From the NCBI GenBank assembly GCA_026770705.1, contig JANJGN010000034.1:5580001-5644000 (forward strand): a stretch of DNA of 64,000 nt. The letters run 5' to 3'. Origin of the DNA: Isurus oxyrinchus (lineage: Eukaryota). How positions within the stretch are numbered: position 1 is the first letter of the stretch; each line of letters opens with the position of its first letter. The translations under genes and the position numbers were made by a program. Shown in pieces: positions 2,291-57,145 of the stretch. The notes beneath the pieces are model-generated. The model saw nothing but the letters and a program-made list of their open reading frames with translations. It was not told the origin of the DNA and did no database searches.

Positions 2291-2326
2291 AGCTCGCGAA
2301 AATGAAACATGCCCTCAATGACGCAG
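2291..2326 (+). CDS. Micro-exon 2, class A, 36 nt: ELAKMKHALNDA
   Basis: tttacttgttttacag|AGCTCGCGAAAATGAAACATGCCCTCAATGACGCAG|gtgaag. Confidence 0.88.
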
Positions 2327-3829
2327 GTGAAGAAGGGCCTTTAAGTGCATTTTATATGGAACACGAGTCATATACATTAGTTCCTTAGTAAATCTGTGTT
2401 AATAATTGTCGAGTTGCAACAGATTTGTCATCCGTTCGCCATCTTAACAAGCACACTTCTGACGACCACATGATGTGAAATAAAGCTTACTGAAAGAAAC
2501 GCTCTGTGTATATATAAGTAAAAGGCGGATGTTTGAAAGCGGCACAGGAGCAGAGAGAAAGTCGATGTGCATAGAAAAAAAAACTGAATGTGATAATCCA
2601 TGCATTTGGATTCATGAGGCACAGAGACGTGCGAGGACGCCACTGTGTCTGCCTGAGTTTTGGTGATTGGTGGGGAGGTTGGGGCGTTGGTTTAATTATA
2701 TGATTGGGATTTGGATAATGGTAGAGTAAAGATATAGAAAGGCAAAATATCCTGAAATTTGTACAGCAGAACTTCCTTGATATGTATTTTTTGTTACAAA
2801 TAAAAAGGAAACATTTCTGTGCCTGGTGCTAGAGAATTCATTTCCGCAGTACAGCAAGTTTCATAGTTGTCTTTGATAAGAACGATAAAGGTATTAGAAG
2901 TATTCTATGTGTCGTAGCGTTGAGGAAAGAAAATTAAAACTAAAGCAGCACTCTGCATTGGAAAAGGGTAGAGTTAAGGAGGCTCAAGGAGATCTGATCA
3001 TGGCAAAATGGAAACAATCATGAGAGCAGAAATAAGTTCCAGTCCAGTTATTGACTGTCAGCATCCGTGAAGAGAGAAACAGACTTACAAGGGTTGTGAC
3101 TTATGACCAGAAATCGAAGAATGTTTTGAAAAAAGCAGAACTAGAACAGATGAAGGGATGATAGTTATGGAAGAAATAACATGAATGGTTGCAAAACGGA
3201 TGCCAACAAGATGGAAAGATCAGAAAAGAAAAGGTAACGGTTCCCGACTGAGGAGGAGAGGGATTATGAATGAGGAAGAGAAGGTGGTGAGAAAAAAAAA
3301 AATCAATGGTGCTCATCAGGAGAATTTTAAAACAGGAAACTGCACCAAACACAGCAATTCAAAAGCGATATTGAAGAGGGGGGAACAATGTGACCAAGGG
3401 AGAATGAAATATAAGTTAGCAGATTTCTTAACCCGGTAATTGTCTACATGTAAATAGCCTACGTTTAGTAAGAAGTGGGGAATGCCTATTAGGAGAAATC
3501 GGTTTCTTGGAGGCGTGGGGCAGTGCTTGGACATTCAATGTGCCAGATGTTCTGGTATCAGGAGCACTGATACAACAAACAAAAGTTGTGTTTTCCATTA
3601 GGAGCAATCGGAGGCCCAGACCAGAGCACAGGTGATGCCTTTGGCCAGGAAGGCCACACGTCCAATAGGCTGATTGGCATCCCCTGGACATGGCGGGTCT
3701 GGCTCTTACACTGATGCAACTGTTAGGGACCTGTATTCGATAAATGATATGGAACCAGAGGTTTAACATATTATGATTGCACTCTGGTATATATATTCAT
3801 CTCAGTGCATAATAGTGTCACTGAACCCA

Positions 3830-4885
3830 GTACACAATGTACATGCACTCACACAACCAAGCAACTCACACAAACCATAGTCAACAACACACACACCCGC
3901 AGCCCTGCCTTATCAACCTATCCTACTAACAAGCCAGAACCAATTTCACCGAAATAGACACCCACTGATTCAAACACCCTTGAAACCCCGAAATTTGATC
4001 AGCTACCAAACTCACCCAGCCAGCTGACCGGACATGGGCTCAATATTTCTGGACTGACACTAATATCTACTGAGCCTGCTAAACTCTGTCCTAAACAAAG
4101 TACCCAATAGGTCCAGGATAAAGGCTTGATCTATGAACAACCACCACACAATCAGAATAACCGTTCTTCCTGAACCCGAGCAGCCTAGGGCTGTGCCCCG
4201 ATGGCTTTATCCTCCAATGGTGTGAATACTTCCCAGATCCGAGTGGAGCTCCCTGTGTCCCGATTAACTCATCACCCACCCTCACCCTTCTCCACACAGG
4301 AATATCACTCCAGACTCAGTTCCTGGAAAGTTACGATTCGAATAGCAACACCTGATCATGACTTAATCGGCCTGAAATCACTCGCTATTCTAGCCTAGGC
4401 AATGATCCCACTTAACTCACCAAAGATCCCTCCCTGGCCCCTCAATCACTCAATCATACACTCACAAAACTGTAAGCATACATATTCCGCCTCCCACCTA
4501 TTCAACCACTAGCCAGGACATGGCTACGCACCACTGCCACGGTTGGAATAAAACCTGAACCACACGTGGCCAGCTGGCGACTTGTCTGAAAAGACCTTCT
4601 GACCCCGCCTCACATAATTATGCCTTGACTATGTCCGAAAGCAGCCCACAGAACCAACAAGATTTGCTCCCTTGCCCGTATCCGGCTACCCTTGTCCCTA
4701 CTTTATCTCTGTTGACTGGCCCTGTGACCCTCCGCTCCAACCATTTCGTTACCTACCCACCAGATTACCTACCAAGCCACACTCACTCACATTCAGCCAC
4801 GCAGTAACACACCGACTCATTCACTGAAAGACATTAGCTCCCATCCATTCACTCACTCACCCAGTCAAATACCCATTCACTGACC
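3830..4885. repeat. C/A-rich low-complexity tract with degenerate ACTC/ACCC motifs
   Basis: Strand-biased composition, e.g. actcactcacattcagccac and cattcactcactcacccagtc; no credible ORF. Confidence 0.45.
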
Positions 4886-6105
4886 CACTGAAATCTTTCG
4901 AGTCCCGTAAAGTTCCGACTGAACATAAAATTTATTGTCATAACTAAATTGATGTGCCTTGCGCGTGTTTCTTCTTTAGTGGTGTCCTGTTGCTCTGCTG
5001 TGCTGAAGCATTGTAGAGGCAATTTCTTGAACAATTTCAAAATGGTGATGCAGAAATATTTGCAGTCAGCAGCGATATACCACGACATACAGCCCCCACG
5101 ATCTATTTCTCCCCGACCTCATTAAACCCCTTCACGGCCCAAGGTTTTCCTGAACATCTTACATCCAGCATTATTGATTAATCATTTCCGAAATTCTTTG
5201 CATCAGTTGTTCATTATAGTTTCCGAGGGGAGCAAATGGAGGTATGGATGGATAAGATCGAGAAAGATGTGTTGCTTCCATGACCTTTTTGCTGCACGCA
5301 TGAGGGCACACATATTTATGCCTGTACCAGAAGCACAGGCAACATAAGGAAGGAGGACTTCTACTGAATGTACCGATTTGTAATTACTCTGAAGCCACAA
5401 TGGTACGGAAGGCAGAAGATTAACATAATTTCTCATGCAGTAGTTGCAGTTGAACGTCCAGTTCTGGGCATCATACATTCGATAGAGAAGCAATGCCTCT
5501 GAGAACATTTGTTGACACTTATGAGGCTTGATCTTTCCATAGCTTACTTTAGTTGACATGTGAGACGAGATCATCTATGCTTGTTTTACGATCAGCAATA
5601 AATATTACCGGGAGAGTAATAGCTATAGAAGAGCATGTCATGGTTTGAATGAACACTTGCTGGAAAATTATTTCTGCTGACAAAATCAAGGGAAGCTGGA
5701 GAACACGTTAAATTAATTGCCAAATGTACCAGGGGAAATAAATAGAGGTGTTGTCAGTGCTTTGCAGCTAACAAGCATGAATTAGAATATATCATTTCAA
5801 AAGTCAATGACCCTCTATTCACTCGGAATTTTTAATGGTGAATTAAGAAGCTACTTCAAGGGAAAGCTGTTTCACTTTGCAGAAAGGCCGGGGAAATGAG
5901 TTTATTAGTCAGATAATAAAAAGTTTGAGCACAAGCTCCTATCGGAGAAATCCAGCTTTCAGTGCTGTACCAGGTTATTAAAATATGCTTATATCAATAT
6001 TTGTATCGTGGATCGTCTCCTACTTATCTTCTTCATGTATGGATCATGCATCTTGCTTGTAAAACAAAATATCATTACATTGACATAGCTTGTATTCTTC
6101 CTTAG

Positions 6106-6132
6106 AAGAAAAGTTAGGCCGATGTGCGACAG
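6106..6132 (+). CDS. Micro-exon 3, class B, 27 nt: EEKLGRCAT
   Basis: ttgtattcttccttag|AAGAAAAGTTAGGCCGATGTGCGACAG|gtaaat. Confidence 0.87.
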
Positions 6133-6230
6133 GTAAATGCAGAGAAATTGATGCCCGTGTTCACTCTTACCTTGTCCCATGGACATGATTATCCTGATTA
6201 ATCATTCTGTGCTGAACTTGATTTTCACAG

Positions 6231-6251
6231 TTAAAGGTGGTTCATCAGATG
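6231..6251 (+). CDS. Micro-exon 4, class C, 21 nt: VKGGSSD
   Basis: ttgattttcacag|TTAAAGGTGGTTCATCAGATG|gtgagt; 98-nt intron from exon 3. Confidence 0.85.
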
Positions 6252-7269
6252 GTGAGTATTATTAAATATACTTCTAGCACTTCAAATAAATTACCAATAT
6301 GGATTACCTTTTCACACTTGACAGTTACATCATAATTTTATAAATAATCACAAGACTAATTCGACTTTAGAAGTTGCGTAAGAGATGGTTCAGGTGAGAA
6401 ATGGTAAAAACAAAAAGCTGTACATTACTTGCATCACTACTTTGAATACACTCGTTGACAACAATATGATGAAAGTGCTAGTAGATTCAAGGATTCAAAT
6501 TTGTTAAAAAAATCGATTACTGAATGATGCCATTCTGTTTTCCTTGTTTTCATCTCGAGGGACCACCTTAAATTTTCAATCAATTCGACGTTCCAATTAT
6601 TAACATACATACATCACTCCACAAGGTTTTTTTTAATATTATTGAAAACAAATTCATTTTACTAATACTATATTTCCCATAACGTGACATTTTAAACCCT
6701 AACATCTGAGAAATTTCAGCAGACTCAGTTATGTTTTCTTCATGCAACGTACAATCTCCCCCATAATTTCCAGATCATTCAGTGCGTTTTTACTTCTCCT
6801 TGCTTCAAAACAAGTACACTACTGCTCTTTGCAAATTCCTTTGCTCCTCATTTTCTTTTCCCTGTTTTCTAGGGGATACAGTTCCTTGAGATTCTTCCAC
6901 TATCATTGACCCATTCTACATATTTGAGCACCACAAGATTGCGGAGACATAGTTCATGAATAGACTTCATTTCCTTCTTGGTCAGTGGCATACATGCCTG
7001 ATTATGGCTGTTGGCCGATCTGACAGTACATTCTATTTCGTTTACTCACCACCTACTGCAGACTCAGTCTAGCAGCTATGCTTTAGGACTTGGACAGTTT
7101 GGACAGTATTAATGCCACCAGGCTTACTCTTGGAGATTGACATCGAAGCCTCCCACCCAGAGGATGTGCTGTACCCTAGCCACCATCAGTGATTCCGCCA
7201 CGTGACTTTCAATGTTGAGGAGTGCTGATTGATTAGCTGAAGGAGGGCTGTATGCCATAATCAGGAGAA

Positions 7270-7545
7270 GGATTCCTTGCACATATTTGACTGGAAATTA
7301 AGAAACTTCATCGGGTCCGCAATCGATGTTGAGACCAGGTTAAGGAAGGCAGATTTTCTTTTCTAAGGGGCAGTAATCAACCAGTTATGCTTTAAAACAT
7401 TCGAGAATCGTTTCAATGCCTTCGAATTCTACATTTCGTTGAAATGAAATTCCACCAACTGACTTGGATTTAAACCGGGAGTTCTGCAGATTATTACTCA
7501 GGATCTCTAGTTCACTAGTCCAGCGAAAATACCAATGTCATTGCT
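7270..7545 (-). mobile_element. Degenerate SINE copy
   Basis: Reverse-complement similarity to the copy at about 62295-62595 (gaaggcagattt, ttcactagtccagcg motifs). Confidence 0.55.
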
Positions 7546-7649
7546 TCTTTATCTCTGCTGTATCTGTGATAACGCACGCACACATAAAATATTCACCCAA
7601 AACACTAAATATTGGGCACATTGTAACATATGTGCAGGTTTAGGCCATC

Positions 7650-9065
7650 AGGAACCTTGAGACTGCTTTACCATTGGACTGGATCAAGGCTGTTCTTCAA
7701 TCTCAATAGCAATTTCCCGTAATGTTCACATGTCCCTTCATGTCATCGGTATCTATAAATCTATCAACGCCTGCGTTCAACACTTTCAATGTCTGGGCAT
7801 CCACAAGCCTCTGTGATAGAGAATTCCAAAACTCACCACCCCGTGACAACAGATGTTCCTCGTGATCTCTGTCCTAAGTGGATTAACTAATTTCCTGGAA
7901 TTCGTGTATCAAAATCCATCTGGTTTAAATATTGCAATGAAGTTTGAAAGACGGTTAAACAGGGGGAATATCATTTGTGCACCAATCATATTGAACACGT
8001 AACAATTCATTGCATCCTTTGCTCAGGAGGACAAAAGTTAGAGCAAAATTCACGACGTGGTTTCGCAAAAGCTATATTAAATTGCAGCATGACGTCAATA
8101 TTCCTGCTGGAAATACCGTTGCAATAAAGGCTAGCAAACCATTTGAATTCCAAATTGTGTGTTGCACCTGCTTGTGACTTACGAACAAGAACAACTAGGT
8201 CTCATTGTTCAAATCAAAACTCCCATTCTCTCTCCATGCAAGATGTAATCTGCATCTTTATTTCTCCTACCAATATGCATAACATTACATTGACACTTGT
8301 TATATTCCATCTGCAAAATTTTTGCCACCATATGTAGCCACTCTAAATCTCCAGAAAGCCTCCTTGCATCCTCTACAAAACTCACATTCCCAGGAAGTTT
8401 ATTGTCAACAGTTGATATGAAAATATTACATTTTGCAGGCGCATCCACATCATTGATATCTGTTGTCAATAGCTTGCATCCAAACATAGTTACATGCAGT
8501 GCTCACAATCAGAGCTGCCAACATGCGATTCTTCCTTTTGTATGTACTCTCCTCCTTCTGTCCGATTATAATTCTGAATCCTCCGATATATTTCCCCCAA
8601 ACCCTTGTGCCACAACTTTGCTTACGAACATCCAGTGTGGGACCTTGTCGAAAGACTCCTGAATACCTAAATGCACCACAAAACTGGATTTCCCTAATAA
8701 AAATTGCCAGCAACGTTCTCAAAATACACGGAGAGGTTTGTTAAACATAATTTCCCGTTCGTTAATCCATGCTTACACTGACAGTTTCACCATTGTTTTT
8801 GAAGTGCCCAGTTTATGAGATGTTTATTATATATTTCAGCATTTTTCTTATTCTAATAAATGGCTGACAGGTCTGTAGTTCCTTCCCCCGCCGCCCCCCC
8901 CCCCCCCACACCCACACACACACACACCCCACACCCCCCCTTGCTTATTTAATAGAGGGAGTACGTTTATTAACTTAATATCTGCAAGCACCTTTCCAGA
9001 ATACATGGAGTTTGAATGATGATCGCCACTGCATTCATTATCTCTAAAGTAACCCCTTTCAACAC
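7650..9065 (-). mobile_element. Decayed CR1-type LINE, RT region to 3' end
   Basis: Minus-strand fragments INVLPLLNK...RNYRPVS and KCQCNVMHIGRRN match CR1 ORF2 motifs; frameshifted. Confidence 0.8.
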
Positions 9066-9494
9066 TCAATCACACTCGTCTCTTCGCTCCCTCTAAATCA
9101 CCGAATAGCCTATCTTGATAAAAATGTGAGATCTTCGGGATTCCTCCAAACAGAGAAAAAAAAATCGAGCCGTTTCAAAGCAACCCTTTGAATCTCAGAC
9201 GCCCAGGAATAACATATTTTCCTAAAGTGGTTAACAGCTTTTCTAACAGATTAACTTGCTAAAAAAAACTTACATTTACCTTTACATTTCCTTAATCAGC
9301 AGAACATAAATCAATAATTTAAACTCCAATTCCGTCATCAAAGAATTTGCCGAGATGCCTTGCTGCAAAGTCGCTCCTCTGCAAGGGTCTCACGTAGCCA
9401 GCTATAATCCTTCTATCATCATTCTGGCAACACAAAAAATCCATTTTGAAATTTAATTACCTCAGACCTCCCTACAATTCACTTACATGAGACG

Positions 9495-10095
9495 TTATTT
9501 ATTTTTCTCGTTCACGGGATGAGAGCGGCGCTGGCTCGGACCATATTTATTGTCGATGGTTAACTAACCTTGCAGATATGATGATCAGACACTTTGAACT
9601 TGCACAATACAGTGCTGATAGGAAGGAAATTCCTGCGCTTTGACCAAGCTAAATTGAACGAACTACGACATACTTACATATCAAGATTGTATAATTTATT
9701 GTGGAATGTACAATTGTTGTGTTGTTCCCATTGCATCTGTTACCCTTGTTCTTCTTGGTGGTAGAGTCGAGCGTTTGTAATTTTTTTTCGACAGAAACCT
9801 GGGATGCTCCTGCATTGCATTTTATAGATGGCACACACTGCTGCAACTGTGTTCCAGAGGTGGAGTTATTGAATGTTTAAGCTGGTGGATGGGGTGCCAC
9901 TCAAGCCGAATGCTTTGTCTTGGATGCTGTCGAGCTTCCTGTGTCTAGTTCCAACAGAAGTCATCCAGCCAAACTGAAGTACTTCCAACAGGCTACTGTC
10001 TTGCGCCTTGCAGATGGTGGGCAGGGTTTGTGAAGTAAGGAGATGAGTCTCTCTCCATCGAATGCCAAACCTATATTCTGTTCTTGTGGTGACAG
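9495..10095 (-). mobile_element. 3' fragment of a second LINE family (CR1/L2 group)
   Basis: Minus ORF LLTSQTLPTICKAQ...KLDSIQDKAFGLSGTPST; related copies near 13350, 41335, 43980 and 54254. Confidence 0.75.
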
Positions 10096-10440
10096 TATGG
10101 AACATCCTTACAATCCTTAATGGGCTCCATTTTGCACTTTTACTCAAAGTTGAATCAAAAAAGGAGCACACAATCCACGATGTGCTGGTTAATATATCTG
10201 CAATTGGCTATTTTGTTAATGCCTCCTTAGGCAATAAGTGCATTATGGCACTTGCAGCCCCACGAGTTTTTGAATTGGTCTTATTGTCAACATGATGAAT
10301 AGGGCCATTTGTCCATCTTGCAATCGTGGTGCAGAAATTTGGAGAATCAAGGTCATCCTGCATGCTTATGTTTGTGTTGATCAGTTCAGCCCTCGTTGTA
10401 CTTCAGACAACATCATGAATGGTCATAATACAGCCAACGT

Positions 10441-10587
10441 CGGGGCCTGGCCTAAGTAGCCAAGTGGTTATGTTACTGGGCTTGTAAACCCAAGAGCAAG
10501 AGTTCAACTCTCACAATGGCAAACTATGAAACAATGTAACTTCATCTGAATAAGGACAGATGGAAACGTGTTTGTACTCGAAAGAGT
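10441..10587 (+). mobile_element. Short tRNA-Thr(UGU)-like SINE or retroposed element with 12-bp target-site duplication
   Basis: A-box-like TAGCCAAGTGG, anticodon-arm-like CTGGGCTTGTAAACCCAAG, B-box-like GAGTTCAACTC; flanked by TACAGCCAACGT at 10429-10440 and 10588-10599. Confidence 0.8.
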
Positions 10588-11419
10588 TACAGCCAACGTT
10601 GGTCCTGAAAATTGCCCATTGTACCTGTAATTATCCTGCAAGTGTGAGGTGTCTCAAACCTTTGAGCAACAGGCTGTTATTACACAATATAAACGTGAGT
10701 GGTATTCTCCACGAACAGGATGCTGCAATCAGGCCACAAAACATGTTCTGCCTATTGCAAATGGAGTTGTTTATAAATCGCTGGCTGATGTCATGTCAGG
10801 CATATAGGTCGTATGTCCCAACCATTGACCAATTCTATCAAACAATATGTCCATTCAGCTATTTCAACAGTGAAAATAATGATCGCGCCCAAGCAGCACA
10901 CACTTGCAACACTCAGAACATAGTCTCCACATCCCGTGGCCTGCTAACAATCCTGATTGCACAAAGAATTACACTCAAAACAAATGCGAGATTGTCAGTT
11001 GTTCTCTCTTTGTGTCTCACTTACGCATGATAGAAGCCAAATTTTTCACGAACAGGGCTCTGTCGTTTGCAGAAGGAAAGAAGAGGTGCCGCTTTTTCAT
11101 ATAAACAAAATCTTATGGACCAGTCATTTCCTGGTTCACAGCCCGTGGCAATGACTTGCCCAATCAGGTTCGATCTCTCCGGTTTGCATTTGAAAAAAAA
11201 TCTGGGCCGCTAACTTCTTAATACTGCATACTCCATGGTGAAAATTCCATGTGCCCAGTCCCCAACTAACCAGCTTTCGTTTCTCATGAAGCATAATTAC
11301 CTCTTTCCACTATAGTTTGGTAGTGCCTTCTGATCTACCCAGATGTACGCATGACAAACACTTTTGATGGTATGTCACGGCTGTTCAGCAATACTCAAAT
11401 TAAATATTAACATTCCAAG

Positions 11420-12010
11420 GGGTGTTAAGAAATAACGGAGGGAAGAGGCATGCAGAAATTTTGGGAAAAGGGCCATGCAGTGGACCTAGCAAAAATGTTC
11501 GTTGAAAAAGCTGTCATATACTCCATGGTCTGGAACACCGTCTGATATGCCATCATATTCTCGTACTTTATAAGTCCAGTATACTGAAACTTAAGTTGTA
11601 AAACGTTCACAAAATGTGCACCAGGAAGGATCTGTTTATCTGATAAATGAAAGGCTGACATGGGATGGTATAGTGCATTGGAGCATAGCGAAAATGTCGG
11701 AAGAATACACATCGAGTACACAATTCCACCCGTTAGGAAGAACAAAGTTAGGATAGGTAAATCTTAGATATTCTTTAATAAATCTAATGACATGTTAAGG
11801 ATAACTAGCTGTTCAACAGAAATTAGTTCACAAATTGAATGCCTGTCCTGTGGAACTTAAAGCTAAATGAAGCCAAATGCATCCAAGTGGATCCTCCACA
11901 AGAAATTGAAGGGCAAAATCACAAAGTAGGTTTGGTTAAGGTTACATTGAAGGGAGATTGTAATGGGTATGTAAATGGCATAGGCTAATTAGGCTGTATA
12001 GCTTTTTTTC
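11420..12010 (+). mobile_element. Highly decayed CR1-type 3' remnant
   Basis: ctttataagtccagtatactgaaac...gttcacaa and tggaactta...gaaattg resemble the CR1 ORF2 C-terminal region seen in other copies in this window. Confidence 0.4.
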
Positions 12011-13349
12011 AGGATTGTAACAAAAACTGTTTACTTTGTTTTTGTGTTTAATATTGCAATGAGTCAGTCAGAATTATCAGTTTTTCAATCTTCTCAGGAA
12101 GATTATTTACGTTTTTATTGCCATGATCAATCTCCTTGATTAACTGAAGAATGCATTCTAGCAAATATTCAAATCAAACGAAGCCACGGAATCATTGTAA
12201 TCCATTAAACACTGCTGTTTCGTCCATATGTTTGTTGTGCCTCATGAATGCCTTTGAACTTGCTGATATCGGGAGTGTTCTGGAGTGTACAAAATTATGA
12301 AATCATCAGAATGAATCTAATTATCTCTACTGAAATAAGACTGACAACACATTTTGGGCACTAGCACCGAAGTACTATATACACCAGTCAAGGGCTGTAC
12401 ATCCCGATATTGCGTTCTTTTGAAGTGGACGGAACTAAATATTGTGCACGAAGCTGAAAAACAGGGAATTTCACTGCATCCATTTTACGGTTCTGCTTAA
12501 AATGATTCTATCGAAGGCAGCTATGTAACTATGTCTATTCGGACTGCTGAAACTTTAAAATCCGTTGCTCTCAATTCCAGGGAGGTAACATTTATTGCAT
12601 ATTTTGATCTGAACAAGTTGAATCGCGTCCTCTTCCAAATGTGTGCAAGAACGCTATTTGGAGACACTGGAGTTGGAATTCGGCAAATAATGGCATTCAT
12701 AAGGGCCGGCGATTCATCATCAGCCAAGTATACATGACGTAATTATTTTCAGTTGACATCTTCCCCCGTAAACAGCATCAGGGGGCCGAATACCTGAATA
12801 TCCTCTTTCTACGTTTAATGACTGACATAGGTATAAATGGCCCTGAACTACTCCATCACGTGTTCAACATATTCACTCGATGCCTTTGAACAATATCTGC
12901 AGGAAGAGCAATTGACGTTTCTTTTTATTTCCGAACAACATTTTTTCAGTTTGACAGATATTAAATTGTACTTTAACATTAAAAACAAAGTTAACTTCTA
13001 TAAATTACAAGCACTGGACAGCTTTGCAGTATCAGGGAGTCACACCCGCATCAGAGGGAACAAGGAGCAAATGAACCACTGGGGAAAGTTATTTATGTAT
13101 CCCGTAATTATCGTTTAAACGTCAATTGTGAACAAACAATATAAGCAAGGCTTCACAGCATTCATTGAAACATGATAAAAATACATACGACCCAACGATT
13201 TCAAAATTCCAAACATAATTCCAGAAATGTTTTAAAGACATCAATGAAAACGACGTGTTCTAAAAGCAGAGAGCACACTCATAGGGATCAAGCGAAAAAT
13301 TGCTTTCCTGATTGAATGTCGCCGGTAGGTTGCTGGATGTAATGGTTGT

Positions 13350-13940
13350 TTTAAGAGATGTCTGAGTCGCTGGCTAGGCCTCCATTTACTGCCCTTCTCA
13401 TGTTGCCGCTCAGAAAGTGGTGGTAAGCATCCTTCTTGAACCATTGCAGTCACTGTCGTGTAGGGGCACCCATAATGCACTTAATGGGGGAGTTCAAGGA
13501 ATCTGACCGAGACAGTGAAGGATAGTTAGCATGCTAAGTGGCCTGGAGGGGAACTTCCAGGCAGTGGTGTACTCACCTAACTGCCGCCGCGGTCCTTCTA
13601 TATGACAGCTGTCGTGGGTTTTGGAATATCCTGCAAAAGGAACCTTGGGGAGTTTCTGCAGTGCATCTTGTAAATCGTGCACACGGCTGCCAATGTTCAT
13701 CATTGGTAGAGGGAGTGAATATGGCTTAGGGTGGACCAATCAAACAGGCTGTTTGTTCCAAGATAGTGACAAGTGCCTTGAGTGTTGCCGGAGATGCACT
13801 CATCCAGGGGAGTGGAGAGTATTCATCTCACGCCTTAATTGTACCAAGGCAGGTTTTCTGGAGCCAGGAGGTGAGTTACTTGCAGCAAGGCTTCTAGCCT
13901 CTTTCCTGCTCTTGTAGCCACACTATTTGCGTGGCCACAC
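13350..13940 (-). mobile_element. 3' fragment of the second LINE family
   Basis: Similar to 9495-10095 and 43980-44570 (gctggctaggcctccatttactgcc tail; gagccaggaggtgagttact). Confidence 0.7.
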
Positions 13941-44570: not shown

Positions 44571-44649
44571 CATAGAGTAGCAAAAATCTTTATATTTCAT
44601 GATCTTTGAACTCTGAAAGTGGTTTTACAGAAAAATAAATTGGTCAACA

Positions 44650-46878: not shown

Positions 46879-46905
46879 AAGAGAAATTAAAGGCCTGCCG
46901 GAAAG
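46879..46905 (+). CDS. Micro-exon 18, class B, 27 nt: EEKLKACRK
   Basis: aataataattatag|AAGAGAAATTAAAGGCCTGCCGGAAAG|gtaagc; weak pyrimidine tract but clearly similar to exons 3 and 6. Confidence 0.85.
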
Positions 46906-46997
46906 GTAAGCAAGACCACTATCTGAGACGGTAATGGGTGCAACAATTATCATTATTGTTTTGATGACGTTCCATCTATTGTCCTTCATAATCTCAG

Positions 46998-47024
46998 AGC
47001 TGAAAGACTGCAAATCCAACGACC
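46998..47024 (+). CDS. Micro-exon 19, 27 nt: ELKDCKSND
   Basis: gtccttcataatctcag|AGCTGAAAGACTGCAAATCCAACGACC|gtgagt; 92-nt intron from exon 18. Confidence 0.85.
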
Positions 47025-47364
47025 GTGAGTACAGGCAAATTTCCTGCGTGCATTCATTGCAAAGTTAAGCGTGGTGCAAAATGGCTGATTATGAACTGGC
47101 CCTCTTCGTTTGACAGCTTTCAATATGCTTATCTGTACTGAAAACAACGATTATACAAAAAAAAAACATTGTGCCAATTGTGCCGCATTGATCAGGGTTA
47201 AATACTTCTTTACAGTGAGAGAAAAGTCACCATGTTTACTTACTCGACCAACATTCATAAATCTCTCTACACATATTCTTTACTCACGCTCCAGTGATAT
47301 TACATTTTACTAATGTTCCTCTACCAATAGTTTTTTTTTAAGTTGTATTATTTCCATTGGACAG

Positions 47365-47400
47365 AAATTGAAAAACTTAAAAAACTTCTTGAAGATACAG
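47365..47400 (+). CDS. Micro-exon 20, class A, 36 nt: QIEKLKKLLEDT
   Basis: tatttccattggacag|AAATTGAAAAACTTAAAAAACTTCTTGAAGATACAG|gtgaga. Confidence 0.87.
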
Positions 47401-48033
47401 GTGAGAAACATAATTGGCTTCAAAAAATAACTGTTGTCGTTTTATAGTCAAGTAAAGTGAGTGCAAGCCTGTTGATCTCGAATCGTAGAGATACATTGAA
47501 CTTACTTTGAACAACACACACATTACTGAAGTGAGCCGTGTAGACAATATTGCAAAATTTTGGATGGACTGACCGCGCATTGGTTAAAACCTATATTGGA
47601 AATAATCGGTGTTTATAAAGTTGCTGTCGATTGTTCTCGCTCATTTTTTTTAAATCCCAAAGACAGTTACAAAAAATGTATTGTGAAAATTAAGGCATTT
47701 TTTGCGGCCTTCGCATAATATCATATATACGCAATGGAGATATTTTAGTAACTACGGCTTTTTGAGGCACCAGGAGAAATATAGAGGCAGGGCAGTAATG
47801 CCGAGTTGATCGGAGAAGGCGGTGAAGACAGTTACTAACAACCTCCTTAATCATGAGGGCTTTTCTGTTGAACGATTAGGCCTTAACTATGGAAGCAGCT
47901 TTAAACAATGGTTCAGATCCTGCAATTGTGGCAGAAAGAGCTAAGTTCAAGTTCTATTTCACGAAACAAAAAAACAATATAGGTTGCACGTCCACTGCAG
48001 AAAACAGGCAGTGTTACACCTCTGTTCATTCAG

Positions 48034-48054
48034 CTTTTCAACTGGTACTGCATA
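48034..48054 (+). CDS. Possible additional 21-nt micro-exon: AFQLVLH
   Basis: ctctgttcattcag|CTTTTCAACTGGTACTGCATA|gtaagt; frame- and heptad-preserving but compositionally unlike the other exons. Confidence 0.3.
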
Positions 48055-49379
48055 GTAAGTTCACCCCGCCTTCCTAGTTGGATGCAAATCATCCCATTCT
48101 GTTGCTTCAAAGATGTGGACGATCGTTCTGGCTTGTGTCCTGATTGACTTGGTTCTCTCAATGAGTGCATGTATTATGTATATTTCTGCATATAAGGAAA
48201 TAAATGGATAACTAGATCCATAAATAAGTAAATAAATAAATAAGTACGCAAGTCATGATGGCTGCCCTTTCTGATTGTTGGACTATTCTGTGATTATATT
48301 ATTTGCCATATTTCATAACTTATAAAAATAACAACAGGCCAAATGTGTGCCGTTTATTGAAAAGTTGTTTGGAGATCACCGAGACTGCAAAAGACATTCT
48401 TGTGCCTCTTCCTTCCCTTACTGAGGAACTAGGTTGGTCGGCAATTGATTGGTAGGCCGCATACAAAAGCCAGAAAATTATTTTAACCTGTGTGCCCTGT
48501 CACATAAAATCTCGTGGGATATAAGCAAAGTATCATGCCTGCTATCATGTTGTTCACGTCAGTTCTAAACCAAGTGGATAAAAAAAAATGAAATGAAAAC
48601 AACGTGGAAAATTGAGCAACGATTCTCTGTTCTGCAATGTCCCTGGAGTAAAATGTCTAGTAGAGATAGTGTCAAATAATAGGAAGAAGATGTCATTGTT
48701 GTTAAATGAGGAGTACATAATGCACAAAATACCTGGCAAGTAATTCCAGGCTTTTCTTCAAAATTATGCCAAATGTTTTTTTTGAAGTTTTCCTGAAAGA
48801 TTTGCGATGCCTGGTTCACCGCCTCATGCTAAAGGAAGAACCAAGGAGAGAAGCATACTACTAACTAGATTAGTATTGTCACAGTGGTTAATGAGTAAGG
48901 CATTTGTAATGAGTTGCAAATGCAGAGACTTCTGCCTCATGGGTGAAACATCAACAACACAGCTTAGTATAAGCTTGGTGACAGATAGAAAAGAGAACAG
49001 TTGAATTTGTCTTTAGTGCATGCTTTCTACCTCAACATCGCTGCAACAGATTATCCATGCAACTTGAATCTCATAAGTTGTTGCTTCTGCCTGCAGTCAC
49101 TCTAAGGTGCGGCAAAATTCTATGTTCCACATTTAAATATGGGTACCAAAACAGTTCAGTAGTCATTACAACGCGATGAAAGTGGACCTATGGCTGACTA
49201 CAAAGTATTTTATTTTCGTAGCAATTTGATCAGCTGGCCAACTAAGTCCATTAACGAATATGATTGTATGACCCGACCGAAAATAGCCATCTGTTACTTG
49301 TTCCATGTTATTATTCCACAAAGTGATGACCCTAGTTCTGCTAATCACACGTTTTCATTTTTCCCCTTATGCCAAGAGC

Positions 49380-49650
49380 AGCAAATGCTTTAGCCCTTAC
49401 CGTTCTAGTTCACTCTCACTTTGTTGTTTGACCATGGCATATTTCCCAACCTCTCTTTAGCCCCCACATATCGTTCATCATTACTCGTGCTTCAACTGCT
49501 CCACCCTCCGAAACAGTATGAAGGTACCCACATTTCTACTTCTATGTAGCGCTGCAGAAGAGTTATACAGACTCAAAACGTAACTCGGTTTCTCTCTCCA
49601 CAGGTATGGTCAGACCAGTTGAGTTTTTGCAGCATATTATGTTTTTATTT
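49380..49650 (+). repeat. Dispersed repeat fragment (retroelement terminal-repeat-like)
   Basis: gactcaaaacgtaactcggtttctctctccacag...gagtttttgcagcatattatgttttt; a related degenerate segment lies near 20140-20220. Confidence 0.45.
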
Positions 49651-50573
49651 TATTATTGCATAATTGTTGGATAGGAAGTCGAACAATTGTCCGTTGCAAA
49701 TCCAGGCCGTGGTTCTGATGTGGCAAAATTCTAAATTTCTGCATAAGGGTTAAATGGAGGCCTTTGGGAGCACTTCTGCCTGTTAGTCAGAACGTTACAG
49801 ATGCTCCCCCCACTCCAAGACAAAGAAAAGCAAAACTGAGGTGGAAACACCATTGTTCTTCGAATGGAGGACTAAATCTCAGGTTTTTCAGTACTAGCAA
49901 AATATGTTCTTTATTTTTTTCAAGTGAATCTTTACCGACAGCTTGCACGCCATCTATGTTGCAAGCAAAGGTTTGCCGATCATTTGCGATCTTCCCTGGA
50001 ATCAGGCATATTATCTTAATCAAGCAACATCTCTAAAACAGGTTGCGTGTTATTGCTGCTGTACAAAATTTCTGTGTCCCAATCAGATTTCGAGTTTTCA
50101 GCATTGTGAATTCGGTGCTTTGACCTTGCCTTTAAGAAACAGATGGAATTTGCTTTGGGCCTTGCAAGCTTCATCACAGTATTAAGTTGTGTTATTTCAA
50201 ATGGCTCAATTTTTTTCCCATGTAAATGTCCATTTACTTCACACCGGTTCAATTATTTTCCCATATGAGTTTCAAGTGCCATGACAATTACACTGAAATT
50301 AAAGCATTGGCAATCACGAATTAGCTGGATTGCAGATCATCCCTTGACGCACATGCTTTGTACAATAAAAATAAAAGACAAGTGGAGTTGCATTAAAAAC
50401 ACTGACCCAATGTTTTCGAGACGTTGAGGTGCAGGTGGATGCAAATCTCATGGCAAACATTTAATTCACTTAATTTTCGATTGCTCTGACAAAACGTTGA
50501 GTTGCACAGGGTCTTCAAAATTAATTCACTTCCTGTTGCACCACATTTTATCATGTTCGTTTCTTCTTCCCAG

Positions 50574-50600
50574 AAACTGACTTGGTTAAATGCCAGTTGG
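50574..50600 (+). CDS. Micro-exon 21, class B, 27 nt: ETDLVKCQL
   Basis: cgtttcttcttcccag|AAACTGACTTGGTTAAATGCCAGTTGG|gtaagt. Confidence 0.88.
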
Positions 50601-51479
50601 GTAAGTGTGTTTTTACATTCATTTTCTCTCGAAAGTTAAAGCATTATGTGTCAACAGTTCGGGATTCTATGAGTATGCATTATAATTGGGCCATGAAATG
50701 ATGATTTTTAACCTATAACAAGGAACACGAGCTCCAAAAAACGTGTGTAGGAAACCTACTTCATTGGCCGGTTCATCTATTCCCGTGGCCTTTGGAGTAA
50801 CTTGAATCGATCATAATGGTTAAGGGTTCCTTGATATCTTCCGAAAGCAATTGAAAAGAAAACAATGTACATTTCTGATAGTTCTCTTTTTCTTCAAATG
50901 TCACCTTTACTTCTTATTTGCTTGGATTGAGTTCCCGATTTCCACCATACATTGTGCGAGGTGTGTGTACAAAATTCTCCCCTTCGTGCAACAACTTTAT
51001 TCAGATTCAAAACATTCGTTTTGGGCGCCAGTAGCAGCAAATAACTCTGCTTTATTAGATCCATTATCTTCTCTTATTACGCAAAGAAGCACAATTGGAT
51101 CACCTCTCAATATTAAACACGCAAAGGAATGCAAATAAAATGTATTAACACAGTCCATACAGCCAAAGATGAACATTTACGTTAGCTGTGACTATAGATG
51201 AAGAGAAAACAACGTTCTATCCACAAATAAACTATAGTATTAAGTAAAATACTGGTAGAAGATTTAGTAATCACTGGGCTCAACAGCTAGCCATTTCGAA
51301 TAATTCCCCGTGATATCATGATACGATTGAAAGCATGGGGTACTGCAAAGGCCATTGGTCTGGACAGCATTCCGCCAATGCCACTGAGTTCATCTCCTCC
51401 TGAACTAACCGCACACTTATGCAAAGTTTTTCAGTCCAACCACGCAATAGACACTTATAGGTAATTTGGGAGATTGTTA

Positions 51480-52377
51480 AGGGACGCACTATACATACAA
51501 GCAAAAAAGCAGCACGATCCCGACCCGGTCAATTACCGCTACACGAGTCGAATCTCGATCTTTGTTAAATTTGAGAGATATTTCATCGGCAGCGCTATCA
51601 AGCGACACTAACTCGGCAATCACCTCTTGAGTGACGCACAGTTTGGGTTCCGCAAAGACCCTCTCATTTCCTGACCTCATTACATCTTTCATCGAAACAT
51701 GTACTAAAGAGCAGAACTGAATATACATGAGACTGCCTGTTCTTGACATCAAATCATCATTTTACCGAGGGTGGCATCAAGGAGCAACAGAAGAAAAAAA
51801 AATCTCTATTCAATGCTTATCAGAGGAAAACTCTCCACTGGTTGGTGTAATAACTAGCACCAAGGAAAATTATTGTGGATCATGGAGGTAAGTTAGCTTA
51901 GTCCAGGCATATCGAAGCAGGATTCCCTAGGGGTACTTGTGTCTTAGGCCCAAATGATTTCAATTGTCTCGTAAATGACCTTCATTCCATCATAAGATGA
52001 GAACTGTGGATGTTGGCAAGTAATTAAGCAAATTTTATCACCATTCACGAATCCTCAGAAACTTAATTCCCAGCACCCATATGCAGCCAGACGTGGACAT
52101 TATTGAGGCTTGGGATTAACAGTGGCCAGTAACATTCACGTCATGCAAGTGCCATTTATAACCATTTCAAACTATCCAAAACCTAACCAACTCCCCTTGA
52201 CCTCCAATGGCTTTAAGTTCGATGATAACCCCCAGGAGCAACAATATTGGCTGTTTCAACTGACCAGAAACTGAACTGGGCCACCAATTCACATACTGTG
52301 GTAACAAGAGCAGGCCGGAGGCAGGAAGTTCTGTGGAGTGTAACTGAAGCCCTGATTCCAAATGCCGTCCCCCATCT
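51480..52377 (+). mobile_element. Second-family LINE RT region, 5' half (split by a CR1 insertion)
   Basis: ccggtcaattaccgc (P.NYR), cagtttgggttccgc (QFGFR), cttgacatcaaatcatcatttt (LDIK..F), DQKLNW motifs. Confidence 0.8.
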
Positions 52378-54253
52378 GGCACGGAGGTTTACAAAAGCAA
52401 CCTGCAGAGCAAAGAGTGGATATTTGAAAGCTCTGGCTGGTAAAATATGTAAAATCCCAAGATATTCTATATGTTCATCAATGTGAAAAGGGTATTCCAG
52501 GAAAGAGTGCTGTCCATTGGGGACCAAGGGGACAATCTATGGTTGGAGCGAGAGGCCAAAAATCGAATGTAGTACGATTGCTTCATATCCATCTTCACAC
52601 AAGAGAATAAGGATGACTGTATAGAACTCGGGGATTGAGAAAGGAAGTTATTGCACACTTTGAAATAAGGAGTGGCAAGGTATTGGTAGTGTTGGCACGC
52701 TGAAATGAGATCATATCTTCAGATCCGGATTTTGTTGGTCCCAGACTGCTGAGGGAGACCAGGGAGGTTAGCACAGGGTTTTCTGAACCATTTTTAAAAT
52801 TCCCATCTTGCTACGGGGTGATGCCAGAGGACTAGAAAAAAGCTAATGTGGTTCTGCTATTTAAGGATGGTTGTAGCGATAATTTCGCGAATTGCGGACC
52901 GATGAGTCTCACGACATTGGTAGGTAAACTATTGGAAAAAATTCTGAAGGAGAGATTATATTTCCATGTAGAGAGGCAACGTTTGATCAGGGATATTTAG
53001 CATGGCTTTGTCCGAGGGAGGTTATGCCTAAATAATTTTATTGAAAATGTTGAGGAGGTGACCAGTTGTCTAGATGAGGATATTGCATTTGATGTAGCTT
53101 ATATCGATTTCAGCAAATGCTTTGATAAGTTCCATCATGGGAGACTTATAAGGGAGGCAAATGCACATGGAACACGGGGTGTTTTGATAAGGTGGATTCA
53201 AAATTGGCTTAGTTGAAGGAAGCAGAGAGCGTTGGCAGAAGGATGCTTCAGTAGTTGGAAGCGAGTGTCCCGTGGCGTATCAGAGTGATCGGTGTTGGGT
53301 CCCCTATTATTTGTTATTTATATAAACGACAATTATGACTATGTGGGGGGAGAATTAGTAAGTTTGCGGAAGACACAGAGATTGGCGGGGTGGTTAACAG
53401 TTAGGATGAGTGTCCTGGGCTACAGGGAGATATAAATGGGATAGTCAAATTGGCAGCTAAGTGGCAGATGGAATTTAATCCTAAGAAGTGTGAGAAATGT
53501 ACTTTGGGAGGCATAATTTTACAAGGAAATATTCAATGAATGGCAGACACTAGGAGGTTCTGAAGAACAAAGGGAAACTGGCCTGTGTTTCCATAGATCA
53601 CTGATGAAAGAGTGCCATGTTACTGGAGTTTGAAAAAGGCACTTGCCCTTACCCAACGAGGCATAGATAACAAAGGCAGAGAGGTCAGTTTAGAGTTATA
53701 GAACCTTGGTGAGGTCACAGCTGCTGTTCTGGTCGGCATATTATAAGATGGATGTAAATGCAAAATTATAGGGTGGAGAGGAGATTCACCAGTATATTGC
53801 CTGTGAAGAAACATTTAAATTATGAACAGAGGTTGGATTGACTTGTGTTGTTTTCGTTGGAGCAGAGAAGACTAAGGGTTGACCTGATCTATGTGAAGAA
53901 GATTTTAAGTGGCATGGACAAGGTGGATAGGGAGCAACTACTGACCTTATTCTATGGTCGATTAACGAGGGGATGCAAATTCAAATTGAGGGGCAGGAGG
54001 TTTAGGGTGAATGTGGGGGGAAAAAATATTTTATTTGCAGAGAGTGGTGATGGCTTGGAATCCGCAGCCTGGGAGGGTGATGGAAGGGGGTTGCCTCACA
54101 TCCTTTATAAAGTTCCTGGATGACCAGTTGACACGTTATAAAATTCAAGCTTATAGGCCAAATGCCAGTATATGGGATTACGTAGGTCGGCCAGGTGTCC
54201 CTCACATGTCGGTGTAGGGTCGCTGCTGCAATGGATTATTCTGTGATTCTATG
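52378..54253 (+). mobile_element. 5'-truncated CR1 LINE nested in the second-family LINE
   Basis: RT motifs DFSKCFDK, GPLLFVIYIND, SKFAEDT; C-terminal FSLEQRRLRVDLI; 3' tail ATTCTGTG-ATTCTATG; ATCT on both sides. Confidence 0.9.
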
Positions 54254-54745
54254 ATCTACAAGGCAATGCGCAAGATTGTGCTCGATTGCTCCACGCTTTC
54301 TTGGAAGACTGCCACTCCAACAACACGCAAGGAGGTCGGCACCTTCCACTATATATCCTTAAACTAGATTGGCATCACATCCATAACCCTCAACTTTCAC
54401 TCCCACTATCAGGGACAGTGGCTGCAGCGCATTCCAACTGCACGAAGCTCTGCTGTAACTCCCCAATGACCCTTTGGCACCACCTTCCAAAATCATTATT
54501 TCTATTACCCAGATGGAAAACGGCATCAGATACATGTGAAAACCAACACGTGGATGTTCCCCTCGAAGTCACGCGCCACCCTCACCTACCACAGTTTCTC
54601 AGAATATTGGATCTCCTTTCCTAGCAGCAATGCTGGTGTTCCTGCAACAATTAGATTGCAGCAGTTCAAGAAGGCAGGTCACTCTTACCTCCTCAAGGCT
54701 ATTAAGGATGGGCAATAAAAACTTACCTAGCCAAGACGCCCACAA
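54254..54745 (+). mobile_element. Second-family LINE, 3' half
   Basis: Resumes with atctacaaggca (IYKA) and ends in the family tail ttaaggatgggcaataaaa...ctagccaagacgcccac. Confidence 0.8.
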
Positions 54746-56263
54746 ATTAACAAATTAACATGAAACAAATGAGGAACAAATTTAAAAAATATATATATAC
54801 ATGAGTCGGTGTCAGTTCTCTTAACTCAACTAGCGCAAGTTGCACTAAATTATCTAATTCTAGCGCAGCCAGTTCAAAAACGGAAGCCTTATCAGCCTCG
54901 CTTTTTTCTCTTTGAAAGACAGGGCTTGAGGTTGATCTTATAGGACATTTCAATTGCTTAAGGTGTTACGTTAAATATAAAATCGTGATTATATTCCCAG
55001 CTTTGTTAGAAACCGGAGCTATGTTTCATGAATGTATAATATAGATAAGTATAACCCATAAGGTGTACGGGCAGCTGGGGAAGTTTTGAACTTTGCAGCT
55101 TAAGAATGAATAGCCTGGAATTATTTAAAGCTAATATAGACATCCATATCAGACAGGAAGTATCAGAAGTTTCTGTTGAGAACAATAGACATCGAGTGAT
55201 CACCGGAGATGTGAATAAAAAATAGGGATATTAATAGAAATATTAAGCCTAAAGGTCATATTATCACGTTGTTTAACCAATGTGATTCGACATATTTGTG
55301 AAAAATGTCCGAATGAATTCTGTGCAATTTCTGTTTTGTGATCAACTATGCATGTTTCCAAATCCTTACAACTCAAAGGCCTACAGCTTAAAATATTGTT
55401 AAATGTGATTAGTTTCAGAAAAACTATTATTCTTTTGCAATGTTATTTTGGCTTTGCTTGCATTGAGCTCTGCAAAATGAAAATAACGTTAGTGTCCTTG
55501 TTCTGATGGCAATGGTTCGGGAAATATGACAAGCCTAGTAATAGGGCTTGTGGGTCAATTAAATATGACAAACGTTGCATGTGGTGACATGACACACAAT
55601 TCTGAAAATTCTAGACGGGTCACTGCCACATGACTAACGCCTCGTTATCATGTTACTATACAAAAAGTGAAATGAAATATCAAAATAATTGTGATTCTTT
55701 AAACCTTACGCATCTTACATATGATACAACGATCAATATTACATTTATAAGGTGCAGACTTTCAATTTGCAATTGCCCTTGCAGGTCAGCAGTTTTTTTT
55801 TTCTGGATAATCACACGAAATGTGGTTCTTCTTGCAAATGATGAGATTTAACCTTTTTTTGGTGACTTCAATTTAAAACGCAATTCAAAATAGAATTTTA
55901 AAAGTCAAGCAGCCAGCAAGTTTTTTTCTGGTTTTGTGTTGGGTTAAACAATACGAGTACCGCCTGCACATTCATGATTACTTATTCAAATTCTCCTTCT
56001 CTAACTCCGCCTTATGTTATCTATTAAATCGCGATTCAAAACTGCCCGCACCAATTTTGAAAGAAAAATGATGGCTCAAGACAGCTGGCAACAAAAAACA
56101 ATTAGCACACGTGGGCAACACCACAAAATTTGCTGTGCATGAACATTTTCAGCCCTACATCACGTCAAAATGTTAAAGGCATCCTTATTATGCTTTCTTT
56201 TCGTGAACAACCCTAGTTTACACAACGGAAGTTGAGGCATTTCTGCTTGCTATTCTTTGACAG

Positions 56264-56299
56264 AAAATGAAAAACTGAAGCAAGAATTGATAAAGAAAG
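56264..56299 (+). CDS. Micro-exon 22, class A, 36 nt: ENEKLKQELIKK
   Basis: cttgctattctttgacag|AAAATGAAAAACTGAAGCAAGAATTGATAAAGAAAG|gtgaaa. Confidence 0.87.
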
Positions 56300-57118
56300 G
56301 TGAAAAAATGAGAATGATGTGGATGGTTAACTTCAAGACTTGAGCCATATCAGTTTCCTTTCTGCAGAAAAGTGGCACGTACTAAAATATGCAGAGTGTA
56401 AATTATTTGTAATGTTCAATACTGCTTTTTGTCGCAAACTGATTGATTGCTAATTAAACATATTAATAGAAATCAATAGTAGATATACTGTATTGAATAG
56501 AAGTTATACAAAAGTCTAATTTTTTTTTATTTTGACCTATCATGAAGCGAACACTTGTTTTTAATGTTTTTCACTCGCTTTGTCACAAACGATGCTATGG
56601 ATACAACGAGACTCTACAATGTTCTCCTCTCTGGAAAACCTCCTGCACTGGCAATATGATTGTGTAAACCAATAGCTCTGCTGCATAAATCCTAACTGAA
56701 GTCAAATTTTAATCATTCTGATCGCCTGTGCAAAGATGTGAAAGATGATTCAATGCTACAAATCTACAAGATATAAGGATCTCTAATATACTGGCATTAT
56801 ATATATACAGATATTCATTCCACTGCCTGGGCTCTCTGCTTTGCAATTATTTCCCTTAACTTCCCCGCATTCCCCACTCTTGCTCATTCTTGATACCCTT
56901 AAGTCTACATCTGTGATCAATATTTTTCTTAACAGACATGGCAATATGCTGTTATCAGAAAATATTTATTTCATGCCACTCCTGTGAAATGTACTTGAGT
57001 GCAAATTTTGCTAAAAGTCGCAGTAAAGTTAGAGTAAAAGAAAAAAAAAAATATTTTATTAGTATTTCATTAGGAAATAACACGATTTAACATTTTCGAT
57101 ATGTTTTCACATATTCAG

Positions 57119-57145
57119 GCGTGGATTTGAAAGACGTGTTCCCAG
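57119..57145 (+). CDS. Micro-exon 23, class B, 27 nt: GVDLKDVFP
   Basis: gttttcacatattcag|GCGTGGATTTGAAAGACGTGTTCCCAG|gtaatg. Confidence 0.8.

Follow-up and report, generated by a model that had tools for sequence, protein, structure and literature searches.

Alternating phase 1-1 micro-exons in Isurus oxyrinchus, probably the middle of a very large gene for a coiled-coil rod with a terminal B30.2 domain

The coiled-coil tail of chicken BG proteins is encoded by phase-split micro-exons of 21 nucleotides (nt), some of 18 or 24 nt, with heptads that span two exons, a variable number of exons and splice isoforms, as described in the available text of PMC5938342 and PMC4046983. In butyrophilins, a B30.2 domain comes after the heptad repeats (PMC4046983), and the origin of Ig-SPRY proteins in jawed vertebrates is treated in PMC11788884. 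Here we analyzed a window of 64,000 nt from the Isurus oxyrinchus genome (4.98 Gb), positions 5,580,001 to 5,644,000 of contig JANJGN010000034.1 (hereafter C34), which contains a series of very short exons spelling heptads. The reading that we favor, and hold to be reasonably probable, is that the window is the middle slice of one very large gene coding for a segmented coiled-coil rod followed by a B30.2 domain, and that this gene belongs to a cartilaginous-fish family. Heptads spelt by micro-exons being already known from chicken BG and butyrophilin genes, the register by itself is a modest point. The novelty lies in scale and rule: a single shark chromosome carries at least five related genes, two of which exceed a megabase, with hundreds of 27- and 36-nt exons whose alternation preserves the register, and with a B30.2 subfamily that annotation has mostly reduced to short "TRIM39-like" stubs.

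The chicken BG tail and the rod described here are both long coiled coils made of many symmetric micro-exons in register. The BG gene comprises a signal peptide, an IgV domain, a membrane exon and 13 to 37 tail exons, with no B30.2 domain in the structure described in the available text (PMC5938342, PMC4046983). In contrast, the exons here number in the hundreds, mostly alternate between 36 and 27 nt and end in a B30.2 domain, and the 5′ searches reported below found no immunoglobulin (Ig) or membrane exon. Butyrophilin genes similarly have heptad micro-exons before the B30.2 exon, but they encode two Ig domains, a membrane segment and few heptads, and a quick, unrooted tree puts the B30.2 domain of the present locus in a separate clade. 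A coiled coil followed by B30.2 is also found in TRIM21, TRIM39 and pyrin; here, however, the rod is far longer, a motif scan of the models of the clade found no RING, and 91 open frames from the 5′ regions contained neither RING nor B-box. Enterophilins of the guinea pig are soluble proteins of a few hundred residues, in which a long heptad zipper precedes a C-terminal B30.2 domain and Ig and RING are lacking. Their likeness to the present gene, a soluble zipper plus B30.2, is one of general description rather than of compared sequences, and they are far shorter. Enterophilin has been linked to SNX1 and EGFR trafficking (PMC13749957, available text). Since the defining N-terminal parts were looked for and not found in the 5′ stretches examined, we do not class the gene as butyrophilin, BG or TRIM; by analogy, its product may work as a BG tail joined to the B30.2 domain of a butyrophilin or TRIM protein.

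Micro-exons of the window and their tandem copy

Only 10 open frames of at least 120 amino acids (aa) occur in the window, none of note, and an Rfam search of it returned zero matches. It holds 23 exons, all phase 1-1 and on the + strand, between positions 1415 and 57145 (numbered as in the initial annotation). We distinguish two types: type 1 comprises class A (12 aa) and class C (9 aa), and type 2 comprises classes B and D (9 aa). Two kinds of 27-nt exon occur: those of classes B and D carry Leu at codon 4, those of class C at codon 2.

1415..1441, +: exon 1, 27 nt, type 2 (D-like, Leu at 4-5); paralog identical, 27/27
2291..2326, +: exon 2, 36 nt, class A, GTGA donor
6106..6132, +: exon 3, 27 nt, class B, GTAA donor
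6231..6251, +: exon 4, 21 nt, polar VKGGSSD, 98 nt past the B exon, as C exons are
18206..18241, +: exon 5, 36 nt, class A
18795..18821, +: exon 6, 27 nt, class B
20889..20906, +: exon 7, 18 nt, polar GARKDD
22914..22949, +: exon 8, 36 nt, class A; the next exon is not of 27 nt
24066..24089, +: exon 9, 24 nt, polar VETKKTSD
25086..25121, +: exon 10, 36 nt, class A
26423..26449, +: exon 11, 27 nt, class B, with two prolines (helix break)
32775..32804, +: exon 12, 30 nt, acceptor weak but conserved in the paralog
34021..34047, +: exon 13, 27 nt
35022..35057, +: exon 14, 36 nt, class A, GTAA donor, off-pattern
35820..35846, +: exon 15, 27 nt, proline-bearing, off-pattern
38727..38753, +: exon 16, 27 nt, type 1 (Leu at 2)
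45912..45947, +: exon 17, 36 nt, class A
46879..46905, +: exon 18, 27 nt, class B
46998..47024, +: exon 19, 27 nt, class C, 92 nt past the B exon
47365..47400, +: exon 20, 36 nt, class A
50574..50600, +: exon 21, 27 nt, class B
56264..56299, +: exon 22, 36 nt, class A; paralog identical, 36/36
57119..57145, +: exon 23, 27 nt, class B, with one proline

A splice-site scan of the window gave 23 matches on the + strand and 5 on the - strand. As the scorer had been trained on 19 of the window exons, this result is partly circular, and a tandem paralog about 1.09 Mb downstream, aligned over 57,287 of the 64,000 window bases, served as the independent test. The paralog keeps all 23 acceptor AG and all 23 donor GT dinucleotides, against an intronic background of 0.65 for AG and 0.58 for GT. 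The exons are identical to it at 603 of 678 bases, the introns at 81.4%. No indel was found in the 678 exonic bases, although 76% of random intron stretches of the same lengths are also indel-free. Across 225 codons there are 29 synonymous and 46 nonsynonymous changes (ratio of nonsynonymous to synonymous rates, dN/dS, 0.38; Fisher p 2e-4), and the joined exons are free of stop codons in either copy. With splice sites and frame conserved relative to the paralog and a dN/dS of 0.38, we conclude that the window exons are real and under purifying selection.

We give almost no credence to the idea that they are chance splice-like motifs or the remains of a dead gene. The 46 of 46 conserved splice dinucleotides, the dN/dS and the lack of indels and stops argue against it, as does a scan of the gap-free 464 kb at 5.38-5.844 Mb, which gave 123 exons on the + strand and 4 on the - strand. 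In its favor, the filter on paralog conservation alone lets through six false minus-strand candidates, so that single weak exons may be due to chance. Two extra exon candidates, at 3602-3631 and 41101-41154, have AG and GT conserved in the paralog, yet their acceptor scores are at most 1.9, and they were not accepted; the first lies between the first A and B exons and, if real, would break the first A+B pair.

Two exon types and the heptad register

Types 1 and 2 alternate at 69 of 83 classifiable joins, a count that excludes joins touching 25 unclassified exons, against 49 +/- 5% in shuffles; none of 5000 shuffles was as high. Donor sites differ between classes as well, with GTAA at 31 of 42 type 2 (B) exons versus 10 of 47 A exons (p 7e-7), which is most simply accounted for by inheritance of the donor with each exon class. 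Within the window, the donor preferences reported in the initial annotation were confirmed, GTGA being used by 7 of the 8 36-nt exons and GTAA by 9 of the 11 27-nt exons. Together, A+B modules span 21 residues, C+D modules 18 and A-B-C-D units 39. Six such 39-aa units lie just upstream, with core positions 2, 5, 9, 16, 19, 23, 27 and 34-35, a register that would correspond to five heptads plus one stutter within C.

To characterize the register, we joined the 123 scanned exons with four paralog-checked window exons. This set of 127 exons (65 of 27 nt, 47 of 36 nt and 2 of 21 nt) gives a stop-free frame of 1280 aa, and the heptad periodicity of its natural order is reached by 0 of 200 shuffles in all nine settings. 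An A exon is followed by a 9-mer in 36 of 47 cases. The hydrophobic fraction is 0.85, 0.81, 0.83 and 0.30 at A positions 2, 5, 9 and 12, and 0.89 and 0.58 at positions 4 and 7 of the 9-mer that follows, a pattern of a-d-a-(d)-a-d. Among the 46 A-to-A units, 17 are of 21 aa, and 39, 30 and 12 aa occur six times each.

Six A+B pairs of the window had been singled out in the initial annotation, and the residues quoted for them at positions 2/9/16 and 5/12/19 were reproduced exactly. The broader claim that A+B makes three heptads stands in that the 21-residue module is the commonest A-to-A unit gene-wide, but two of the eight window A exons do not fit: the pairs left out of that account give 20 aa (exons 8-9) and L,R,P / M,L,T (exons 14-15). 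Successive A exons of the window are 28, 27, 20, 40, 30, 30 and 21 aa apart, two of the seven spacings being multiples of 7. Similarly, conservation of register across splice junctions holds for the 127-exon array, but does not exceed chance in the window taken alone. Proline is commoner in the window (6 of 226 residues) than in the flanking rod (9 of 1054). The window is a hinge-rich, decayed stretch, with short polar and proline-bearing exons.

A three-exon cassette of A, B and polar linker, copied eight or nine times, had also been proposed. This idea was not borne out, as a B exon and a polar linker follow only two of the eight window A exons. The first supposed linker, exon 4 (6231..6251), sits 98 nt past its B exon. 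Since C exons are often found at such a distance from B (92-148 nt in six cases), it is probably a C exon that has been shortened. The intron flanks of the eight window A exons were no more alike than random (28 pairs; the best score, 26, equals the random 99.5th percentile), and A and B exons showed no co-variation that would betray joint duplication (Mantel r 0.09, p 0.15, 36 pairs). Nor is the array a unit of the size of the window, as it extends for more than 1.3 Mb up to a B30.2 exon. The array has grown by exon duplication. A recent duplication of three exons (A, B and a 12-residue polar-ended exon) was seen at C34:5751622-5775238, in about four copies with similar intron flanks; it is the only such case seen.

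Cysteines are nearly confined to core positions, at position 5 for 12 of 14 in the 12-mers and at positions 6-7 for 29 of 30 in the 9-mers (A5, C6, B7). This distribution, along with a size that fits a structural role, would suit a secreted or structural fiber with chains disulfide-locked through core cysteines, in which the B30.2 head would serve for assembly or anchoring instead of sensing. We regard such a fiber as very improbable. The B30.2 domains of butyrophilins and TRIMs are cytoplasmic, no signal-peptide exon was found in the 5′ stretches examined, and cysteine is tolerated in the cores of cytoplasmic coiled coils; a figure legend in the available text on the BG tail also marks cysteines (PMC5938342).

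We propose the following model for the rod. All rod exons being of phase 1-1, the duplication, loss or skipping of any of them would leave the reading frame intact. Type 1 exons (A, with core positions 2-5-9-12, or C, with core positions 2 and 6) would be followed by type 2 exons (B or D, with core positions 4 and 7 or 4-5), so that A+B would make three heptads and C+D two heptads with a stutter of four residues. The alternation would then be maintained by selection for an unbroken hydrophobic seam.

The terminal B30.2 domain and the extent of the putative gene

Downstream of the window, the array ends in a B30.2 domain to which the window exons are presumably joined.

C34:6395819-6396339, +: last coding exon, B30.2 (PRY-SPRY) domain and stop codon, 521 coding bases, 752 kb downstream of the window
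1..64000 of the window, +: whole window, inside the putative gene (about C34:4.83-6.396 Mb)

The domain matches Pfam SPRY (E 1.8e-13, 51.1 bits, cut-off 26.3) but not Pfam PRY. Its best match of solved structure is the B30.2 domain of BTN3A1, over the full length (E 4.7e-20), and TRIM21 and pyrin give E values of about 1e-10 to 5e-13. With 150 of 455 candidates scored, C34 was found to carry at least five related B30.2 exons, at 2.709 (-), 3.474 (-), 4.817 (+), 6.396 (+) and 7.496 (+) Mb, each downstream of micro-exons on the same strand. At 6.395, 7.496 and 4.814 Mb, a 27-nt tryptophan-bearing exon immediately precedes the domain. A genome-wide PRY profile listed none on C34 among the 150 of 313 candidates scored, a misleading blank, as the domain there is too diverged. 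A stalk of the CD23 type, with the 21-residue neck repeats of a C-type lectin, was considered and rejected because the array ends in B30.2; a Lectin_C profile had no match on C34 (150 of 614 candidates scored).

A quick, unrooted IQ-TREE analysis of 75 domains placed five C34 domains and two from contig C21 in a clade of 15 rows (SH-aLRT 100), separate from the other 60, most of which are unnamed; 79 of 154 lower-scoring domains and 13 near-duplicates had been excluded. The named members of the clade are all from cartilaginous fish, and one domain of this genome adjoins a Cetorhinus protein by very short branches. Many members bear RefSeq names such as "TRIM39-like", "TRIM69-like" or "A33-like", and their stored models contain no Ig, RING or membrane segment (motif scan; Pfam on five). 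Among 1.84 billion representatives, the best single-domain matches are cartilaginous-fish models or unnamed assembly proteins. No homolog of the domain was found among longer proteins at E 1e-20 (833 candidates), and 3 of 13 near-length proteins were homologs. Two more B30.2 genes of the same clade lie at C21:89722233 and 90753061-91348742, one with B-type micro-exons upstream. Our literature search found no description of this family in the journals it covered, most subscription journals being outside its coverage.

Two relatives outside the 75-domain tree show the same architecture. The 1697-aa model XP_042192744.1 of Callorhinchus milii ("nuclear-pore anchor-like") has a rod of about 1,200 residues followed by B30.2 with the same subfamily motif, and Narcine XP_069797409.1 has a rod that parses as C-D-A-B-A-B-A, again followed by B30.2 with that motif. 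Units of 12 and 9 residues are visible in both rods. The Narcine rod is collinear with the last exons of the present gene (score 102; 9 of 2000 order shuffles and 0 of 119 other 8-exon runs scored as high), one exon boundary having been picked after the target was seen. Both automated models are, however, far shorter than the putative gene. In Scyliorhinus, Callorhinchus and Narcine, the RefSeq isoforms are distinguished by in-frame pieces of 9 or 6 residues, the lengths expected if single 27- and 18-nt exons were skipped. Skipping of one exon alone would disrupt the register, which speaks against splicing strictly by pairs.

Micro-exons lie on one strand in every zone examined between 5.05 and 6.395 Mb, a few single 7-kb samples being empty, and presumably continue across the stretches between samples. 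A genome-wide B-exon pattern gave 18 matches, all on C34 at 3.41-6.85 Mb (control 2). A second B-exon pattern placed 15 of 19 matches on C34 at 2.84-7.22 Mb (control 0) and three on C21, upstream of a B30.2 domain of the same clade. An A-exon pattern was too loose as a genome-wide probe (2 of 34 matches on C34) and was discarded. The mix of exons shifts along the array, with 21-nt exons near 5.1-5.3 Mb and 15-nt exons near 5.94-6.24 Mb. At 5.97 and 6.11 Mb, 139 kb apart, two runs of 36- and 15-nt exons are nearly identical, which suggests an internal duplication.

Paralog pairs are collinear at 4.83-4.85/6.43-6.46, 5.09/6.457, 5.58/6.668, 6.30/7.298 and 6.396/7.496 Mb. Together they delimit one duplicated unit with one B30.2 domain. 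The two tandem genes, which end in the B30.2 exons at 6.396 and 7.496 Mb, share a 5′ block (4.828-4.850 and 6.434-6.456 Mb), after which the copy jumps to the equivalent of 5.091 Mb. Since this block maps to 4.828-4.850 Mb, the gene of the window would span about 1.56 Mb. Micro-exons begin at about 5.05 Mb, and between the genes their density is that of the background (one on the + and two on the - strand in 60 kb). We counted 191 exons in the 817 kb covered, from which we estimate some 340 exons and about 3,400 residues for the whole gene. The tandem copies differ by 241 kb after the shared block (C34:4850373-5091193 vs 6455835-6455840), a segment either lost in the copy or gained here; the copy with this difference is still under purifying selection in the region of the window.

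The array could instead consist of several shorter transcription units or have alternative last exons, the window exons then belonging to a rod-only protein that never reaches B30.2, comparable to the BG-derived zipper protein. Such a product has a precedent in the soluble, tail-only BG product described in the available text of PMC4046983; the models of relatives are mostly short, large stretches of the array lie between samples, and the exon mix varies along it. We nevertheless think this arrangement quite unlikely, given the one-strand exons in the zones examined, the duplication of the unit as a whole with a single B30.2 and the 1697-aa Callorhinchus model.

Several results weigh against a single rod-B30.2 gene. 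No transcript joins the window exons to each other or to B30.2, and neither a start codon nor a first coding exon was found in the 5′ stretches examined. Only 70 of the 463 kb at 5.844-6.307 Mb are covered, so continuity there is extrapolated. The exon catalogue beyond the window depends on a scorer for 5.38-5.844 Mb that was trained on its own 71 best matches. The 3.5-residue periodicity of the window (226-aa joined frame) is matched by 53, 71 and 135 of 500 exon-order shuffles at window sizes of 21, 28 and 42, and 26 of the 46 A-to-A units depart from a multiple of 7, in some cases perhaps because exons were missed. A hidden Markov model (HMM) of 29 A+B modules scores -72 bits on the Callorhinchus rod with the HMMER composition correction; without the correction it scores 76.5 bits, against at most 35.8 in 100 heptad-block shuffles. 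Finally, the models of relatives are predictions, mostly of 101-460 aa, that may lack 5′ ends. Four of the five RNA runs of the same species were aligned to the B30.2 locus, and the B30.2 exon was covered by none of these four, which bears neither way. A complex prediction for two copies of Callorhinchus rod residues 560-700 gave no answer (score 0.02), and a single-sequence fold of the Leucoraja model, with N-terminal helices only (mean predicted local distance difference test score 45), was not used.

For the rod-B30.2 gene, the most likely working model is that a single mRNA would carry all exons and that the rods of two chains would zip together in the cytoplasm, presenting two B30.2 domains as a ligand-recognition head, much like a butyrophilin tail or the coiled-coil and B30.2 portion of a TRIM protein. 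The spacer of about 3,400 residues would be adjustable in length by exon gain, loss or skipping, the latter possibly also in this species, and the protein might serve an immune or cytoskeletal role. A bolder version, possible but in our view doubtful, is that one gene of about 1.5 Mb with some 340 coding micro-exons encodes a half-micrometer coiled-coil ruler with a B30.2 head. Its exons would follow a two-letter grammar, in which splicing or deletion of exon pairs changes the length by 21 or 18 residues in register, and its family of length-tunable sensors or tethers would be confined to cartilaginous fish and missed by annotation. If one transcript spans it, the gene would be among the most exon-rich of vertebrates (titin has about 363 exons), and it would be a natural case in which to test how exon duplication builds long coiled coils and what B30.2 does when Ig and RING are absent.

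The 5′ end and neighboring sequences

A further alternative is a true membrane protein of butyrophilin or BG type, with a signal peptide, Ig domain and membrane exon further 5′ and the rod as a huge cytoplasmic tail. BTN3A1 as the best solved B30.2 match is in keeping with it, as are the hydrophobic stretches at the start of the Callorhinchus and Leucoraja models, and 14 of the 173 kb at 4.877-5.05 Mb are covered. In addition, 21-nt exons like those of BG tails (PMC5938342) abound toward the 5′ end of the array, where they make up 10 of the 19 exons found at 5.05-5.38 Mb. However, the B30.2 domain falls in its own clade in the 75-domain tree, and the Ig searches gave no support. Genome-wide, the butyrophilin IgC profile PF22705 gave 39 matches (110 of 110 candidates scored) and a butyrophilin IgV query 47 (150 of 410 scored), none of them at C34 2.7-7.5 Mb. 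Nor did Pfam Ig, RING or B-box profiles, applied without a genome-wide RING search, match any of 91 open frames of at least 78 aa, namely 63 from the whole 62 kb before the first micro-exon of the paralog and 28 from 4.850-4.877 Mb, histidine-rich repeat frames having been dropped. Nothing convincing as a signal peptide or membrane exon was seen in 6.397-6.467 or 4.817-4.877 Mb. We consider a membrane protein of this type unlikely.

The butyrophilin-type Ig exons of this shark map to C21, where a PRY-rich and butyrophilin-type cluster occupies 82-118 Mb. V domains of 29-34% identity occur elsewhere on C34, where other Ig genes, in Ig V clusters, lie at 15.7-17.6 Mb. The part of the array most like a BG tail is its 5′ part (C34:5084784-5292611), where most exons are of 21 nt and encode one heptad, and where local tandem copies occur at 5.24-5.29 Mb. 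A candidate start exon at 4,849,980 was rejected because it lies inside an interspersed repeat, and a candidate 111-nt phase 1-1 exon at C34:4,859,457 (splice scores 12.5 and 12.0) has no paralog in the genome.

Elsewhere, C43 carries a very large C-type lectin array (0.02-5.96 Mb), and segment L080:9292-9582, between the two tandem genes, contains a weak 7tm_1 fragment (E 8.5e-5, below the cut-off). The introns of the window hold interspersed repeat copies at 9518-9864, 13357-13710, 29942, 41436 and 43995-44372, and the segments 52400-54200 and 57300-58800 resemble by eye decayed sequence of long interspersed nuclear elements of the CR1 type. Positions 30850-30909 and 60206-60297 of the window contain a G-rich run and adjoining (AAT)n and (AAG)n microsatellites.

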